A stretch of DNA of 64,000 bases, from assembly GCA_951406725.2 (NCBI GenBank), contig OX597830.1, forward strand, positions 78,616,001-78,680,000, in the 5' to 3' direction. Positions 21,329-64,000 of the stretch are shown piece after piece. The number at the start of each line of letters is the position of its first letter. The first letter of the stretch is position 1. Below the pieces are notes generated by a model. The model saw only the letters and a program-made list of their open reading frames with translations. It was not told where the DNA came from and did not search any database. The position numbers and the translations under genes are program-made. The DNA comes from Octopus vulgaris (Eukaryota).

Positions 21329-21428
<100 letters not shown>

Positions 21429-21465
21429 AATAAATATATATATATATAGAGATTATATATATAGA

Positions 21466-22979
21466 TTCCCCGCTAGTCTCCTGAAGGAATGTAGACACCA
21501 ACTTGCTGTCCCTCTGACCAACCTCTGGAGAAATTTGTTAGACGCAGGTTATATACCGAAACAGTTTCTATCCCAGTTAGTCATCCCGGTTTTCAAACAG
21601 GGAAACAGATCCCTCGCAGTCAACTATCGCCCAATCTCACTCACCTCCCTCATCATTAAAGTGTTTGAAAGAGTGTTAAGATCAAAGATAGCTGACTTCC
21701 TGGAGACCCACAAACTCCTAAATGCAAATCAGCATGGCTTTCGCTGCGGCAGGGACTGTCTAACACAGCTCTTACACCACATTGAAGATATACTCAAAGC
21801 CTTGGGAACAGGTTGGAACTCTGATGTCATATATCTTGACTTCAGTAAAGCGTTCGACAGGACAGACCATAATATCCTACTCTCAAAATTGGCAAATGTT
21901 GGAATCCGTGGAAAAGTTCTACACTGGATTAAGTATTTCCTGGCGAATAGAACACATGTTGTAGTTGATGGAGTCCACTCAAGCCCAGCAAAAGTCACCA
22001 GCGGTGTCCCCCAGGGGACTGTCTTGGGCCCGCTACTCTTCATAATTTACATAAACGACCTTTCCAGTGTCGTACATTACTGCAAAGTGAAAGTATTTGC
22101 TGATGACACTAAGCTCCAGCAAATCGTCAATGAAGAAGCAGACCGAACTCAACTCCAGTCTGTTCTATATGCTGTGAGTCAATGGGCAGACAGAAACAAA
22201 ATGCAATTGAACGAGGGAAAATTTGAGCTGATGCATTTTGGAAGAAATTCCTCACTAAAACAGCCATACTCTCTTCCTTCAGGGGAACCGCTCACAGCCT
22301 CTAACAATATCAGAGACCTGGGTGTAATTGTTGATGACGATCTCAGTTGGAGTGCACACATCAACAATAAGGTCGATATAGCTCATAGGATGAGTTCCTG
22401 GATCTTAAGAATTTTCCGGTCCAGAGAACAAGGTATCATCATATCACTTTTCTCCTCCTTTGTACGGCCACACCTCGAATACTGCTGCCCACTGTGGTCT
22501 CCCTATACAAGACAAAACATCTCGAGGATTGAATCACCCCAGAGGGCACTCACTAAGCGAATTGAAGGCATGGCTGCTCTCGATTATTGGAATCGCCTTA
22601 AAGCCTTGAAACTCTACTCTCTCCAGCATCGCCTGAGCGGTACGTCATTTGTACGATGTGGAGAATATACCGCCAACTTTGCCCAAACGACCTGAACATT
22701 AGCTTCAAGGTCCATCCAAGACTGGGACCACGGGCCATACGTCCCCTGCCCAATTCAAGATCACAGCATACATGTACACTGCAACATAATTTCTTTTCCT
22801 CAACAGGCCCCGCCTTATTTAACATTGTCCCGAAAGAGATCAAAGAGGAAAAGGATCCCATCAACTTTAAACGGAGTCTGGATAGATTCCTTCAAGGAAT
22901 ACCAGATAAGCCACCTATAATTGGATACAACTCACCCAACAAAAACTCACTACTTGAATGGACCATAAACAAATCTTGA
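21466..22979 (+). pseudogene. LINE reverse transcriptase, N-terminally truncated, one frameshift near 22633
   Basis: The frame is open from 21466 (FPASLLKEC...). Track ORFs 21535..22695 and 22656..22979 join as ...YSLQHR[R]ERYVICTMWRI if one base is restored. Confidence 0.88.
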
Positions 22980-45860: not shown

Positions 45861-46169
45861 AACCGTTTCCACAATTTTCTGTTATTAAGCTTGGTGAAGT
45901 GACGTAATCGATAGAAGATTAAATTAAAATTTTTGAGTGTTAAAATATCTGCATTCTCAATTTAGATTTTTCTGATTACTAAGCATTCTAGCGACTATTT
46001 GAAATATTTTTTTCGTATGACCTGAAGTCAACCTGAAAAATGAAATCCTATTGATTTTTTTTTTTTTCGTTTTTCTTTTTTCATATTTCTTTAGGTGTTC
46101 TTCACTGATATATTCTGGGTTTTTTTTTATTTTATAGGCCTTTGCATCCGGATGTCATATGTCTTGAAA

Positions 46170-46390
46170 TAACGACAGATACAACACTAACAATAATAGC
46201 AGCGATAACAACTCTAGCAACATATTCAACACTTGCAATAGTAGCAACAATACCAACAATAGCAACAGACACAACACCGGTAATGATAGCAACAATAACA
46301 ACAATAGTAACAGATACAGCACTGGCATTGATAGCAACAGAGACAATAATAGCAACAGAAACAACACTCACAATAATAGCAACAGCATAT
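46170..46390. repeat. ~27-nt minisatellite (aacagatacaacactaacaataatagc-like)
   Basis: Eight or so diverged units, which explain the Thr/Ile/Ala-rich ORF. Confidence 0.8.
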
Positions 46391-46687
46391 TCTCAAATGA
46401 CAGACCTAAGAGGAAGACATTTGCACATCAGCCAATGATAGGGTCCACGGTATAATCAGCCAAATCACGCGCTATTGTCACAAAGAAGAATAGATCGAGT
46501 GGCCAAAGGTACACTCTCTTTACTCTTTACTCTTTTACTTGTTTCAGTCATTTGACTGCGGCCATGCTGGAGCATCGCCTTTAATCGAACAACTCGACCC
46601 CGGGACTTATTCTTTTGTAAGCCCAGTACTTATTCTATCGGTCTCTTTTGCCGAACCGCTAAGTAACGGGGACATAAACACACCAGC

Positions 46688-46720
<33 letters not shown>

Positions 46721-47027
46721 TATACATATATATATATATATATAATTAATTAATAAGGGTGAGAGAATTAGATACTAATTTAATAGTATATTTATTCCAC
46801 ACCAAGTGGCCTAGTGCTACGAGAAACCTGGATTATTATAATATTTTATAACATATTATAATATTTTCACAAAATAAATATAAGAGAGTGTTCACTATAT
46901 TGATCACTCTAGCACCAGTTAATCCAAGAGGTTTCAACCACGAAAAATACATGTTTCCCATGAAAGCCGGTACGACTGTTAGCTCACACGGACAGGGCAA
47001 ATAAAAAATAACAAAAATACAGATTAT

Positions 47028-47105
47028 CTTGGGACAATTGTTTCGCTATTAATGAATTAAATGTAATATTACTTACAGTAATCCATTTGTAGCTCTTCAG
47101 CCAAG
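47028..47105 (-). ncRNA. Type I hammerhead ribozyme
   Basis: cttgg CTGAAGA gcta...tagc GAAA caattg TC ccaag on the minus strand. Confidence 0.9.
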
Positions 47106-47992
47106 GCTATCTTGATGAAATCCACTCAATCACACGCCAGATTTTACCATAACGATAATTACGCGTGCGGTTCAATTGATTACATCGGACGTTATAATTC
47201 AAATGCCCCAACCAACAGCGCGCCAAACTCTCACGGAAAACAAAATACAGCATTTAGAAATAAATGCAGCATAATTATAATTAATTAATAAGGGTGAGAG
47301 AATTAGATACTAATTTAATAGTATATTTATTCCACACCAAGTGGCCTAGTGCTACGAGAAACCTGGATTATTATAATATTTTATAACATATTATAATATT
47401 TTCACAAAATAAATATAAGAGAGTGTTCACTATATTGATCACTCTAGCACCAGTTAATCCAAGAGGTTTCAACTGTAAGTATTACTGTAAGTAATATTAC
47501 ATTTAATTCATTAATAGCGAAACAATTGTCCCAAGATAATCTGTATTTTTGTTATTTTTTATTTGCCCTGTCCGTGTGAGCTAACAGTCGTACCGGCTTT
47601 CATGGGAAACATGTATTTTTCGTGGTTGAAACCTCTTGGATTAACTGGTGCTAGAGTGATCAATATAGTGAACACTCTCTTATATTTATTTTGTGAAAAT
47701 ATTATAATATGTTATAAAATATTATAATAATCCAGGTTTCTCGTAGCACTAGGCCACTTGGTGTGGAATAAATATACTATTAAATTAGTATCTAATTCTC
47801 TCACCCTTATTAATTAATTATAATTATGCTGCATTTATTTCTAAATGCTGTATTTTGTTTTCCGTGAGAGTTTGGCGCGCTGTTGGTTGGGGCATTTGAA
47901 TTATAACGTCCGATGTAATCAATTGAACCGCACGCGTAATTATCGTTATGGTAAAATCTGGCGTGTGATTGAGTGGATTTCATCAAGATAGC

Positions 47993-48070
47993 CTTGGCTG
48001 AAGAGCTACAAATGGATTACTGTAAGTAATATTACATTTAATTCATTAATAGCGAAACAATTGTCCCAAG
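47993..48070 (+). ncRNA. Type I hammerhead ribozyme
   Basis: cttgg CTGAAGA gcta...tagc GAAA caattg TC ccaag. GUC cleavage triplet ends at 48065. Stem III ACAATTGT is palindromic. Confidence 0.9.
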
Positions 48071-48221
48071 ATAATCTGTATTTTTGTTATTTTTTATTTG
48101 CCCTGTCCGTGTGAGCTAACAGTCGTACCGGCTTTCATGGGAAACATGTATTTTTCGTGGTTGAAACCTCTTGGATTAACTGGTGCTAGAGTGATCAATA
48201 TAGTGAACACTCTCTTATATT

Positions 48222-48274
<53 letters not shown>

Positions 48275-48725
48275 TACTACGGGCTTCTTTCAGTTTCCGT
48301 CTACCAAATCCACTCACACGGCTTTGGTCGGCCCGAGGCTATAGTAGAAGACACTTGCCCAAGGTGCCACGCAGTGGGACTGAACCCAGAACCATGTGGC
48401 TGGTAAACAAGCTACTTACCACACAGCCACTCCTGTGCCAGTTATTTTCGTTGCTTGGCAATTAGTAGGTGCAATCATTTTATGTAACTTTTCAGTGTGA
48501 CGCAAGATAGCGAGCTGGCAGAATTGTAAGCATGCCGGTAAAAATGTTTAGCCGCATCTCGTCCGTCTACAAGGTCTGAGGTCAAAGTGCGCCGTGGTTG
48601 ACTTCGCTTCTTATTATTTTAGCGTTGACAAAATAAGTACCAGCTTAGCACTGGGGCAATGTAATCGGCTACCCTCTCCCATAGTAGAAAGGTTATGATT
48701 ATTATTATTGTTGTTGTTGTTGTTA

Positions 48726-59909: not shown

Positions 59910-59951
<42 letters not shown>

Positions 59952-60080
59952 TAAAAAGAATTCCAACCTTGTCTGATTTTCACGTTTTATTTACAATCTT
60001 ATAATGATATATTATAAGATAATATATTATAATTGAATAAAATAAAATGAAATAGTAGAATGTTAAATATTCATTCTGAT

Positions 60081-60125
60081 TGAACTAGTACTTTCATGCA
60101 TTGAATTCTGCAATCTTCGGGTTCA
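60081..60125 (-). ncRNA. Minimal type I hammerhead motif in the PLE 3' terminal region (variant core)
   Basis: tgaac CCGAAGA t-tgca-gaattcaa-tgca-t GAAA gtac TA gttca. Stem III AGTACT is palindromic. Deviations are U4C and a U.U at the base of stem II. Confidence 0.7.
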
Positions 60126-60184
60126 TGTAGTAGTGTTGACAGTCATGCTTCACAATTTTTGACTGTAGCAAGATGAGTGATTCT

Positions 60185-60305
60185 GTGCTATAAATACAGC
60201 TGGGTAGGCTCCAGAGTGCTAGGTTTTGCAAACTGTATTCTGACCAATCAGTGTGTAGTATCACTCAATTACTTAAGCTGATTGGTTGGTTGAGCTGATT
60301 GGTTT
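60185..60305 (-). promoter_or_regulatory. Cluster of CCAAT boxes plus a TATA-like motif upstream of the PLE hammerhead
   Basis: Three ccaatcag motifs (both orientations) and tatttata/tataaata ~65 nt before the ribozyme. Promoter function is inferred only. Confidence 0.35.
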
Positions 60306-60619
60306 AGGCATCACGCTTTGTTGGACAGGTCAAGAGTCCTGTATCTTGACCCTGGCCGAAGCAGCAATTGTTGGGTTATTTTTAGAAATGTTGTAAATAT
60401 CCTTTGTCAGAGATTTTTATATTTTTATATTTCAATTGTCATCATCATCATTGTCAGCACCTTAATTATTGTTGCTAGTGGTGATGGTGGTGGCAATAGA
60501 ACTTTTAACCCTAAATAAGATAATTTTCCTGCTATCTTCCTCTTGATCACCTTTAGTATTGTTGTTGTTGTTAGTGGTCATGGTCGTAGCAGTGGAAGTA
60601 ATACCTCTAAGTATTATTA

Positions 60620-62900
60620 TTATTGCTTATTTAGCTTGGGTTCGAATTTATCAATAAAATTCTTTTCTCTGATTTTCCTCTCGATTTCACTTGGGCTGTG
60701 TAATTTGTAGAATGGAAATATTATATATATATTCTGGGTCTCTAATCTGTTGCCGGTGTACACGTGAGCGTTCTAATAGTGCGTTTCCCGTCTGACCTAC
60801 ATATATTTCTTCACAATTTGGGCATTTGATGCAGTAAATTAAATTTCTGCTTTTGCAGTTCATATTCGCGTTTGTGAATATTTTCCCGGTTTTTGTGTTT
60901 ATATATTGACCGGTATGTATGAATTGGCATGTGCCACATCGGCTATCATTGCATTTAGATACCGTGAATGTTTGGTCTTTGTTGCTGAGGTCAAATTTTG
61001 CCTTTGTTAGTAATGTTTTCAAGTTTTTAGGCTGTCTTTTACTAAGTACCATAGCTCGATCCTTGATTATGTCTTTTAATTCATTACTTTGGGCAATGAT
61101 TGGTAGGTTTGCTTTGGCAATGTTGAAGATATTCTGGTGACATGGGTTGTGTGTCACTATGAATGGTATGACTTGTTCTTGTTTTCCTCTTCCTTGGGTT
61201 GTCCTAAGTTGTTGTATAGGTATTTTTATAGCCCGCTGTATGCCATTTTCTATAAGTAGAGATGGGTATTTTTGTTTGAGCAAAAATTCTCTTAGTTCTA
61301 TTAGGCGTTTGTTCCTGATATTTGCATCTTCTACAATAGTACAAATTCTTCTGGCTAGGCAGTATGGGATGTTACGTTTTGTATGTGGTGGATGGCACGA
61401 CTTAAAATTTAGGTATTGATGTGTGTCTGTGTGTTTATAGTATATATCTGTGGTGATGGTGGTGTCTTTTTTAATTACCATTATATCCAGGAATGGTAAT
61501 TTGGTACTACTCATCTCCTTTGTAAATTTGAGAGATGGGTGTAGGTTGTTCAGGAGGATATTGAACTCTTCCAGAGTATTTAGAGATTCTGTCCAGATTA
61601 TGAAACAGTCGTCTAGGTATCTCTTCCATGCCTTTTCAATATACTTTCTAAATCCAGTGCCATAGTTTACCTCCACCTCTTGGTAGAGTTGTTCTTCTAA
61701 GTATCCCATTACAGAGTTGGCGTAAACGGGAGCAAACCTCGTTCCCATCGCCGTGCCTCTAATTTGGATGTAATTCTTTCCATTGAAGAAGAATGTGTTA
61801 TTTTCTAGAATAAGTTTGACTGTGTCTAATATAAATGGCACTGTGAATCTGCTGGGAATCACTTCTCTATGTTTTTCTAACCAGTATTTAATCGCCTTTA
61901 TTCCTAAATCGTGTGGAATATTGGTGTAGAGGCTTACCACATCAAAACTTAGTAAAACTGAATTTGTTTCTGTTGTTTTGGGAAGATGGGACAGGAAGTC
62001 GATGTCATCCCTGATGAAACTGGGTATGTAAGTACATAATGGTTTCAAAACAATGTCAATAAAATTGCTTAGACGGTGTGTAGGGCATGCTGGACCAGCT
62101 ATAATAGGTCTAAGTTTTAGGTCTTTTGGATGTAATAATTTTATGTACTCACTTTCTTGTTCTTTTACTGCCTGTTGAATGTTTTTTGATTTGTGTATTT
62201 TTGGTAAGCCGTAGAAGTTGCTGGGTTTTGGTTCAAAATTGGTGATGTAGTCTTTTTCATTATCCGTAAGTGAGTTGTGGTGTGTTGAAATCAGGTTGTT
62301 GATCTTTTTCATGATGTGGTGGTCTATATTTGCGGGTATTTCACAATAGAAGGTTGTATCCTTCAGTTGGTCTTCAACCAAATCCTTATAGTATTCGGTA
62401 TCCATAATAACAATTGCACCACCTTTATCTGCTTGTTTAATTATTATTGTTTGATCGTTTTGTATACGTTTACATGCAGACATCTCTGATTTGCTAATGT
62501 TTGGCCTAACATTGGTATTGCGTCTAAGGGGAAATTTAGACAGGATATCAATGTATTGGTCAAGGTAGTTATTTCTTCCTTTTGGTGGGGTGAAATTTGA
62601 TTTATTCCTTACTAGGGATTCATCAATCTCATTACTTTTGTTAGCGAAGAATTCTACAAGTCGTAATTTTCGACAGAATTTTTGGATATCCTCCTTTAAT
62701 TCTTGGTGGTTGGCTGTTGGTGTAGGTGTGAATTTCAGTCCTTTTGACAGAAGTTGGATTTCATCATTGTCAAGATCTCTTTTTGATAAATTAATTATTT
62801 TAGGATCTATACGTTCAGTTGTTTGGGGTATGTTTCCTCTTGGATTTTTTCTTTCTCCGGTGTTTGTTGTCCTGACGTAAAAAAATGGATTTTTTTCTGG
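60620..62900 (-). pseudogene. PLE ORF2: reverse transcriptase + GIY-YIG endonuclease, with internal deletion/frameshift near 60725
   Basis: The frame is stop-free from 62900 and includes the conserved IINLS...E..LLSKGLKFTPTP motif upstream of the first Met (62483). The expected C-terminus IFPFYKL...REKNFIDKFEPKLNKQ* is in another frame ending at 60620. Confidence 0.88.
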
Positions 62901-64000
62901 TTATGATTTATATTCCTGTTGATGTTTGCTTGATGAATTTTGCGTTTTGGTTGTGGTACTTTACTTGGTTTCGTTATGTTTTCTGTCTTGTTTTTGGTAT
63001 TATGTATGCTACTTTTCAATTTCTTGTTAGCATTGTTTTTAACCACCTGGAGAAATGATCTGGGTTTACTTCTAGATCTAGATCGGTTTTTTGTCCAGTT
63101 TCTTGTGGGTAATCTCTGTTGAGGTCTTGAAAATGATCTCCTGTTATTTCTACTGCTAATGGTCTGTTCAAAACAATATCTATTTTGTTTGTGCTTTTTG
63201 TTCATGTTGTGTGCATTAGGGTGTTTGCATACAAAATGGGAAGAGTTCTTACCGTAGTTCGTCTTCGATTCGTGGTGAAACGGGTGTTCATGTTGCCACG
63301 TGTTCTGGTGTATGTTGCGTTGGTGAGGTTGTCCACTTTTAATGCTATTTCTCGGAGTTCTGGTGTCTTTACCGTAATTTGTAGCATATTTGTCGAGAAA
63401 TAATTGTTTCCGCTGCCAAAACTTTCTTGATCTGCTTTCTTCTTTTGAGATATCTCTGATCCATAGTTCTCGCATTTTTTCTGCTATATTGCCGGTCGTT
63501 AGTTTGGATATTTCATCTCTGATTTGATCATCGATAGCTTCGTATTTGGCTTTGTAGCGGGATTGTTTAGACAGGGTAATGGAGATGTCGGTCCTGAATT
63601 TTATCAAACTAAGGTCCCATCGAAGTTTAGTTTCTTCCTCTGGTTCTCCTGCAATTTCTTTAATTAGGTACTTCCGAGGAAGTATGGGTGCCGCTAAAGA
63701 TATCCATTTCGAATGTATTTCAGCATATTTTTCGCATTTATATGCCTTCCAGAAGTTTTGTTTTCTTATGTTAAGGAGTTTTTTCCATGTCTTCTGTATC
63801 TCTTCTCTTTTTCGGTGTGCCTCTTTTTCCAGATTTCTTTCGTTTATTTCTGACATCCAAGGAGGTTGTGGTAGGCTTTCTCTTGTAGATTTTATAATTG
63901 TTGGTATCATTTCAGCTAAATTCTTAATTTCAGAGTTTATGTGTTCATTTCCAAGTTTTCCGTCTGTAGACTGTTTTTCTATTTCCTTTAAAATAGAGGA
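62807..64000 (-). CDS. PLE ORF1: charged helical region followed by a basic, R/S-rich tail; open to the window edge
   Basis: No stop between 64000 and 62807. Non-repetitive, >390 codons, same strand as ORF2 and overlapping it by ~94 nt. Confidence 0.75.
   Translation of the reverse strand, partial: SSILKEIEKQSTDGKLGNEHINSEIKNLAEMIPTIIKSTRESLPQPPWMSEINERNLEKEAHRKREEIQKTWKKLLNIRKQNFWKAYKCEKYAEIHSKWISLAAPILPRKYLIKEIAGEPEEETKLRWDLSLIKFRTDISITLSKQSRYKAKYEAIDDQIRDEISKLTTGNIAEKMRELWIRDISKEESRSRKFWQRKQLFLDKYATNYGKDTRTPRNSIKSGQPHQRNIHQNTWQHEHPFHHESKTNYGKNSSHFVCKHPNAHNMNKKHKQNRYCFEQTISSRNNRRSFSRPQQRLPTRNWTKNRSRSRSKPRSFLQVVKNNANKKLKSSIHNTKNKTENITKPSKVPQPKRKIHQANINRNINHNQKKIHFFTSGQQTPEKEKIQEETYPKQLNV

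Follow-up and report, generated by a model that had tools for sequence, protein, structure and literature searches.

Structure of the insertion

The window, i.e. the complete 64,000-nt stretch of Octopus vulgaris DNA analyzed here (G000:C17:78616001-78680000), harbors a non-coding repeat with a 535-nt unit, whose two inverted arms interrupt a SINE. The following features were located, with unit position 1 defined as the base after the predicted cleavage site.

46517..46690, minus strand: interrupted SINE, 3' half (insertion host)
46688..46740: left (TA)n target tract
46741..47473, minus strand: arm 1, 733 nt or 1.37 units; the ribozyme-sense strand is the minus strand
46741..46873, minus strand: ~130-nt 'tail' between end site A (unit position ~160) and end site B (~292)
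47028..47105, minus strand: whole type I hammerhead motif in arm 1, with cleavage predicted to fall between 47033 and 47032
47474..47480: 7-nt insert where the two 5' ends meet, copied from adjoining arm 2 sequence
47481..48224, plus strand: arm 2, inverted, 744 nt or 1.39 units; the ribozyme-sense strand is the plus strand
47481..47535, plus strand: hammerhead remnant left by the 5' truncation, with the 3' half kept and the CUGAAGA core gone
47993..48070, plus strand: whole type I hammerhead motif in arm 2, with cleavage predicted to fall between 48065 and 48066
48225..48276: right (TA)n target tract
48277..48440, minus strand: interrupted SINE, 5' half, with an A-box/B-box-like head as judged from sequence reading

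Arm 1 spans unit position 95 at its inner 5' end to 292 at its outer 3' end, and arm 2 runs from position 486 (inner, 5') to 159 (outer, 3'), which is end site A. The arms are positioned head-to-head, with central 5' ends and with 3' ends that touch the (TA)n tracts; the tail is found at the outer end of arm 1 and is absent from that of arm 2. Within the arms the period is 535 nt and no differences occur among units, in agreement with the first-pass annotation, which had described about 1.4 identical units per orientation in tandem and inverted arrangement. Its placement of the insertion inside the (TA)n tract of a SINE was also confirmed, as the two flanks represent the halves of a single SINE family, another copy of which runs contiguously across its internal microsatellite elsewhere in the window. 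Protein-coding capacity is absent: the longest stop-free frame within the arms comprises 69 amino acids, and no match to a Penelope-like element (PLE) protein was present inside the arrays of 99 loci, so that the element is indeed ORF-less with no reverse transcriptase (RT) between units. The GC content is 0.335 over window positions 46001-48000. Two stop-free frames lie elsewhere in the window, one of 431 codons at 21400-22692 (plus strand) and one of ~100 codons at 46140-46439 (plus strand), which is rich in Thr, Ile and Ala, consists of 9-nt repeats and is preceded by a splice-acceptor-like tract.

The hammerhead motif

One complete type I hammerhead motif is present per orientation, as had been annotated before, with the coordinates in arm 1 derived via the inverted-repeat offset. 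It is composed of a 5-bp stem I, the CUGAAGA core, a 4-bp stem II with a 41-nt extension, GAAA, the palindrome ACAAUUGU and the GUC site. The additional claim of a ribozyme on both strands was rejected for the unit, which carries the motif on one strand only; no hammerhead core was found on its antisense strand, and the motif appears on both strands of the window because the arms are inverted. A ribozyme in both unit polarities, as expected for an ambisense viroid-like or delta-like circular RNA, is therefore lacking.

In the local centroid fold of the motif stems I and II form (z -2.5), and the monomer folds far better than shuffled sequences (z -7.1). Stem I has a probability of just 0.07 in the circular fold. 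Cofolding of two motif copies resulted in an 8-bp intermolecular stem III, similar to the stem III pairing of dimeric hammerheads (PMC4209133). The covariance-model search that had been proposed as a check gave no match to a hammerhead or other ribozyme in Rfam scans of 15 kb and 1.3 kb, probably owing to the 41-nt stem II extension, and the microRNA matches in these scans correspond to microsatellites. Between the young family and a ~70% identical sister family, four of the five stem I pairs differ on both sides, which counts as one comparison of two related groups and not as 16, and pairing was kept in 98% of 175 cells. Further versions of stem I occur in other subfamilies, with the ACAAUUGU palindrome kept. 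The stem I covariation shows that the putative ribozyme is under selection. The motif TTTGGCGCGC at unit position ~340-350 (window 47861-47871, plus strand) is common to the young and sister families and lies in the interval from site B to the hammerhead, the expected place of an internal promoter; it resembles an E2F site.

A young family of dispersed multimers

The genome searched is a 2.8-Gb assembly of 227 contigs. A DNA search with the unit yielded at least 244 matches from 40 of 749 candidates, and those listed were 98-100% identical. An exact 23-nt hammerhead pattern matched 537 times at a spacing of ~534 nt, compared with 0 matches of a control pattern; the first 100 of these matches fall into 31 loci, from which roughly 165 loci are estimated. 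The family is young (~99% identical), and its units form dispersed multimers of up to 12 directly adjoining head-to-tail copies. According to the first-pass annotation, copies that always flank a PLE ORF would be simply solo pseudo-LTRs (pLTRs); this was checked, and no PLE ORF was found in pLTR position among 99 loci.

The element in the window belongs to the known class of non-LTR retrozymes and represents a single insertion of a young and dispersed 535-nt repeat without an ORF. It shares with this class a type I hammerhead in each unit, head-to-tail tandems, absence of coding capacity, low GC content, a unit of a few hundred nucleotides and target duplications longer than 4 bp (12-15 bp at informative loci). 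The ORF with RT and GIY-YIG endonuclease that defines an autonomous PLE is absent from the unit, which shows other PLE features, namely a tail at one end, an inverted 5'-truncated copy and microsatellite targeting.

A looser tail motif matched 3165 times and exposed related subfamilies spaced ~493, 506, 514 and 534 nt. Older subfamilies of the same retrozyme lineage (L101-L115 and L160-L179, ~493-534 nt spacing) have the same two end sites; the tail of the sister family measures 102 nt, and that of the young family contains an additional 22-nt AT hairpin. A different short hammerhead-like repeat with the palindrome ACGAUCGU is located in the downstream flank of L114, in head-to-head arms between TA tracts, and also at L088:335 and L089:1433 (both minus strand). 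Among the young copies, L058 is a whole small contig (C120) that consists almost entirely of a 12-unit array, about one unit of L063 (1430-1960) is full of TA runs and is possibly a sequencing or consensus artefact, and L046 and L047 (G000:C4:160.91-160.93 Mb), which lie 12 kb apart with the same left flank, are likely a duplicate or mis-assembly.

Two fixed ends and duplicated target sites

The anatomy of the insertions was examined at 64 loci, comprising 38 loci from the top DNA matches (the window included) and, as a replication set, the 26 loci that remained among the first 100 exact hammerhead matches on contigs C1 and C2; L157 has a gap at one flank and L143 is partly covered. Two arms are present at 42 of the 64 loci and are oriented head-to-head in all 42, which rules out that the inverted duplication is an artefact of the window locus, as the first-pass annotation had considered. 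The 3' ends of the arms are fixed at site A (unit position ~157-164, two at ~148) or site B (286-292). An A end is paired with a B end in 39 of the 42 two-armed loci (24/27 in the first set and 15/15 in the replication set), and no locus combines A with A or B with B. The first set was selected toward B-ended arms, a bias that would raise and not lower the number of B/B pairs. The three exceptions are L046 and L063, with one end at 189-192, and L064, whose B end is degraded. The 5' ends fall at many positions along the unit, and none is situated at the cleavage site. The copies are thus not randomly permuted as the plain circle model behind an earlier proposal predicts, since only their 5' ends vary.

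The outer ends are associated with TA repeats: (TA)4 was found within 24 nt of 96 of 106 outer ends, against a window background of 7%. Target duplications in unique sequence measure 13 bp (L156) and 14 bp (L142), and duplications of 12-15 bp occur at interrupted TA sites (L033, L044, L052, L059, L067 and L158); about 8 of the 58 loci screened are informative, the others being pure TA or showing no duplication. At the central junctions (23 loci) the arms overlap by 0-4 nt in 15 cases and are separated by a 2-20-nt insert in 8. Both arms exceed one unit in 14 of 21 loci. Arm lengths are uncorrelated (rho -0.02, n=21), and the two 5' ends of a locus are slightly closer in phase than expected by chance (mean 99 nt, permutation p 0.027). 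In an empty-site search (runs X15, X16 and X19) the joints were mostly SINE, and no usable empty site was recovered.

The head-to-head polarity in 42 of 42 loci is the layout expected if the first-strand cDNA of each arm was primed from its own flank. Outward 3' ends together with a target duplication would be left behind if a staggered cut offered two 3' overhangs and each of them primed one first-strand cDNA. In twin priming of L1 elements, inverted polarity arises from two primers on one RNA, with a random second site and arms that do not overlap. The octopus element shows the same inverted polarity, but its two sites have fixed positions and the two arms can each be longer than one unit. 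L1-like collision was rejected, as no inner end of an arm lies at the start site of the other arm and arm lengths are uncorrelated. Repeated homing into own copies was rejected as well, as duplications between units and mixing of haplotypes are absent.

One haplotype per locus

A set of 195 full units from 63 loci was compared with the unit of the window; L046 was left out of these counts, as its left flank is the same as that of L047. The number of substitutions per pair of full units is 0.69 inside a locus and 6.8 between loci, and 35 haplotypes were distinguished among 49 multi-unit loci. Twenty locus-private variants from 11 loci are fixed in every covering unit, in 8 of the 11 across both arms (for example T88C in 10/10, A123G in 7/7 and T342A in 6/6 units), where a variant counts as private if it is absent from the other loci of the 63 sampled out of roughly 165 (~40%), and haplotypes were taken from the assembly, not from raw reads. 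Another 182 variants are shared and fixed, 82 occur in a single unit, and 25 are present in some units only (6 private and 19 shared, many but not all of the latter at the edge of a homopolymer). L031/32 is a mosaic for A489G (6/15 units), and in L155 and L144 a variant is present in two adjacent units. The cleavage junction is crossed 292 times with 0 indels and 2 substitutions, both in one locus.

One haplotype per locus in combination with seamless junctions suggests that each insertion passes via one repeatedly read template of monomer length, which seems to serve both arms of a locus. A monomer bottleneck at insertion is very probable, and a covalent RNA circle, as the simplest form of such a template, is probable. 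We favor, with a probability of about 0.7, a reading in which both ends of a staggered cut prime the copying of a single RNA of monomer length, which is most likely circular, by an RT/GIY-YIG enzyme of a PLE.

Of the other explanations, the best surviving one is nevertheless distinctly unlikely. Here the same PLE and the same two priming sites act on a long uncleaved multimer from a uniform source array, and the hammerhead is a passenger or has another role. Unprocessed RNA is used by the anole PLE in vitro and an mRNA of several copies has been proposed (PMC11167929); seamless junctions are equally expected from a multimer, the mosaic of L031/32 is in line with it, and a uniform source array could lie outside the sample because only 63 of ~165 loci were compared. 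However, in the absence of a bottleneck a new mutation would be confined to one unit and no array could become longer than its parent, whereas private variants are fixed in 5-10 units and 35 haplotypes occur in 49 loci. The stem I covariation, which points to selection on the ribozyme, also argues against a passenger role.

Alternatively, a cleaved linear monomer could serve as template if the RT jumped precisely from the 5' end to the 3' end of the same molecule, thereby mimicking a circle. This would account for one haplotype per locus and for the conserved ribozyme without a ligase. Template jumps of R2 and group II intron RTs usually add or lose bases. Given 0 indels in 292 junction crossings and no pile-up of 5' ends at unit position 1, the linear template is very unlikely. 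Growth in place, by unequal exchange or from a DNA circle after short insertions of about one unit per arm, is highly improbable: local amplification is the scenario put forward for retrozyme satellites in a recent preprint (10.64898/2026.07.22.740005) and the few variants in two adjacent units (L144, L155) agree with it, but most loci are multi-unit despite ~99% family identity, both arms are often multi-unit (14 of 21 loci with both exceeding one unit), and variants in adjacent blocks are rare beside the 82 confined to single units.

In contigs from sequencing runs guessed to be RNA, tandem and circle junctions look alike. Contigs of run X1 cover the whole unit and little of several single-copy bins, a depth that can neither rank nor prove expression. 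At L060 (2200-4400), runs X13 and X3 gave low-depth contigs with many differences, those in X13 being rich in A>G (14/27 places); most listed sites are known haplotypes and a few are not, and editing and alleles are not separable.

Resident Penelope-like elements

At least three young PLE families with intact frames for RT and C-terminal GIY-YIG domains are present in the genome (family A, 781 aa; family B, 775 aa; family C, 899 aa), these being the three examined among 6136 GIY-YIG candidates. Families A and B contain a CX4CX2C linker as in Neptune and family C a DKT motif as in Hydra elements, both described by Craig et al. (PMC8557442); the labels Neptune-like and Hydra-like rest on these motifs and not on a tree. 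Pfam searches covered families A and B and a fragment of family C; the fragment gave no match, and family C was identified from its motifs. Family B has more than 130 copies that are identical over the 272 residues searched, and one of them lies inside the window:

59941..64000, minus strand: left arm of a family B copy, an autonomous PLE and candidate mobiliser, separate from the retrozyme
62900-60690, minus strand: RT and GIY-YIG frame of family B, with an upstream ORF present
60080-60125, minus strand: minimal hammerhead motif with a CCGAAGA core and an AGUACU palindrome

Together with L116/L117 (G000:C17:78674000-78688000) this copy forms a two-armed head-to-head element with its short end on the left and its tailed end on the right. 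Its upstream ORF of 430 aa overlaps the RT frame, and a frameshift or splice is likely because no Met occurs in the RT frame ahead of residue 140. In family A (L081-L096) a 479-aa frame is located upstream, and a hammerhead scan was negative. Family C (L186-L205) is Hydra-like.

Families B and C share several traits with the retrozyme. Hammerhead motifs lie upstream of their ends, they are inserted in (TA)n, and a short end is paired with a long end in every two-armed locus with both ends seen (9/9 in B and 7/7 in C). The tails measure ~31 nt in family B and ~155 nt in family C. Tandem units and arms of family B share private variants (24 fixed, 5 partial and 12 single); in family C 73 variants are fixed, 56 of them from one divergent locus, 3 are partial and 40 single. 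Their homogeneity within loci resembles that of the retrozyme. No site informative for the length of target duplications was found in either family.

The retrozyme is very probably moved in trans by a PLE. Its partner could not be named by sequence: no blastn match at E<0.01 was obtained between the unit and the termini of families A, B and C, and the one similarity to family B, an 84-nt AT-rich stretch (score 60 vs 35 +- 4.7, 1 of 24 comparisons), is weak and missing from the sister subfamilies. A template switch at L168/L203 that seemed to name family C was rejected, as the upstream flank is 98% identical to the intact C copy L193 and the C copy was already there; in comparison with L193, both loci are a duplicated segment in which the C copy is interrupted within its RT and fused to a relative of the retrozyme at a 4-nt microhomology. 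Family C resembles the unit in tail length and in the shape of the hammerhead (long stem II, 8-nt palindrome), and this Hydra-like family may be the partner at slightly less than even odds. The Neptune-like family B is a tentative candidate, and another PLE is an unlikely one. That the unit itself is the solo pseudo-LTR, i.e. a 5'-truncated end, of an autonomous PLE missed by the searches is barely tenable. The tail, the inversion and the TA targeting are PLE traits and only three families were examined, which speaks for it, but against it up to 12 units adjoin each other directly in head-to-tail order, the 99 loci have no PLE ORF in pLTR position, and the termini of families A, B and C lack homology except for the AT-rich stretch.

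Proposed mechanism of insertion

Under the favored reading, in which a PLE enzyme copies one monomer-length RNA, tandem copies would be transcribed and neighboring hammerheads would cleave as a dimer via the 8-nt palindrome, after which the monomer would be ligated into a circle; cleavage and ligation are suggested by the conserved structure and by the behavior of other retrozymes. A PLE protein, predicted to be a dimer, may then bind the RNA and cut both (TA)n strands 12-15 nt apart. Priming would start at site A (~160) from one 3' end and at site B (~292) from the other; the two sites are AU-rich and lie just 3' of a predicted hairpin. Each RT would roll round the template for 0.2 to ~12 units and stop at a scattered position, and host repair would join the two ends via 0-4-nt microhomology or a short insert. 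Failure of one end would leave a one-armed copy. The first-pass proposal of a non-autonomous element with a hammerhead that a PLE RT moves, possibly from a circle, is supported by the fixed two-site ends, the (TA)n targets, the duplications of 12-15 bp, the single haplotype of each locus and the lack of PLE ORFs in pLTR position among 99 loci; it is limited by the non-random permutation of the copies, by a unit that is not ambisense and by the class having been described before.

The anole PLE cuts and extends both strands in vitro, is a predicted dimer and starts reverse transcription at two internal sites that bound the tail; uncleaved linear RNA is used in vitro and the hammerhead is dispensable (PMC11167929). 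Circles as templates were proposed by Cervera and de la Pena in 2014 and 2020 (PMC4209133, PMC7229834). Animal non-LTR retrozymes and their circles have been described, and copying into tandem cDNA by a PLE RT was proposed (PMC7229834, PMC7761336, PMC4209133). Retrozymes were also tied to PLE pLTRs by phylogeny, with the mechanism left open (Li, Clavereau and Pollet 2026, 10.64898/2026.07.22.740005). The arrays may be genomic footprints of rolling-circle reverse transcription in which a dimeric PLE enzyme primes one ribozyme-made circle at two fixed sites, using the 3' overhangs of a cut staggered by 12-15 nt, and rolls both arms, autonomous 3.6-4.3-kb elements included, a generalization for which the odds are about even. 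It would extend to the autonomous elements because their tandem units and arms share locus-private variants. If true, one mechanism would explain the tandem, inverted, tail and duplication features of PLEs.

Comparison with known elements

The octopus element resembles the published animal retrozymes in its ORF-less, low-GC tandems with one type I hammerhead per unit, in the 2-bp stem III with a palindromic loop, in target duplications of more than 4 bp and in co-occurring PLEs (PMC7229834; 10.64898/2026.07.22.740005). Its unit of 535 nt compares with 150-450 nt given by Cervera and de la Pena in 2020 (PMC7229834) and 51-972 nt in the preprint (10.64898/2026.07.22.740005). Cleavage and circles were demonstrated for published retrozymes, whereas the octopus element is known from its sequence; in contrast to the published elements, no pLTR homology to the resident PLE families A, B and C was found here. 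It shares partial tandems, an inverted 5'-truncated copy and a one-end tail with PLEs (PMC8557442, PMC11167929, PMC4209133), in which one-end tails, inverted 5' copies and a TA bias were reported by Craig et al. in 2021 (PMC8557442). Targeting of (TA)n is shared with Neptune, Naiad and Hydra elements (PMC8557442), and two internal RT start sites downstream of the hammerhead were described by Frangieh et al. in 2024 (PMC11167929). Unlike autonomous PLEs, it lacks RT and endonuclease and forms up to 12 tandem units, and its tail of ~130 nt greatly exceeds the 30-40 bp given for PLEs (PMC8557442). Chlamys PLEs such as MRC1 are similarly non-autonomous, PLE-moved and multi-copy in head-to-tail arrangement; however, they share 3' sequence with an autonomous partner and mostly lack canonical hammerheads (PMC8557442), whereas the octopus element has a hammerhead and no clear end shared with a partner.

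The element as such is ordinary and is useful as evidence, and it is the insertion anatomy that is new. Head-to-head arms, two fixed ends and one haplotype per locus are not reported in the accessible text of PMC7229834, where the word 'inverted' occurs 0 times, or of the preprint (10.64898/2026.07.22.740005), and in the open-access literature, supplements aside, no report of strict A+B pairing or of one haplotype per locus was found. The supplements of PMC7229834 (model in Fig. S9), PMC8557442 and the 2026 preprint may bear on this novelty. The papers cited leave open by which route PLEs produce their tandem and inverted insertions, and also if circles of retrozymes really act as templates in transposition. 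The family makes a direct test possible with a small template, two mapped starts and a predicted stagger on a known target, together with three candidate enzymes that are intact. The haplotype test is applicable to any genome sequenced with long reads. As two-armed copies form almost perfect palindromes that reach several kb, transcripts reading through them would give rise to long double-stranded RNA.
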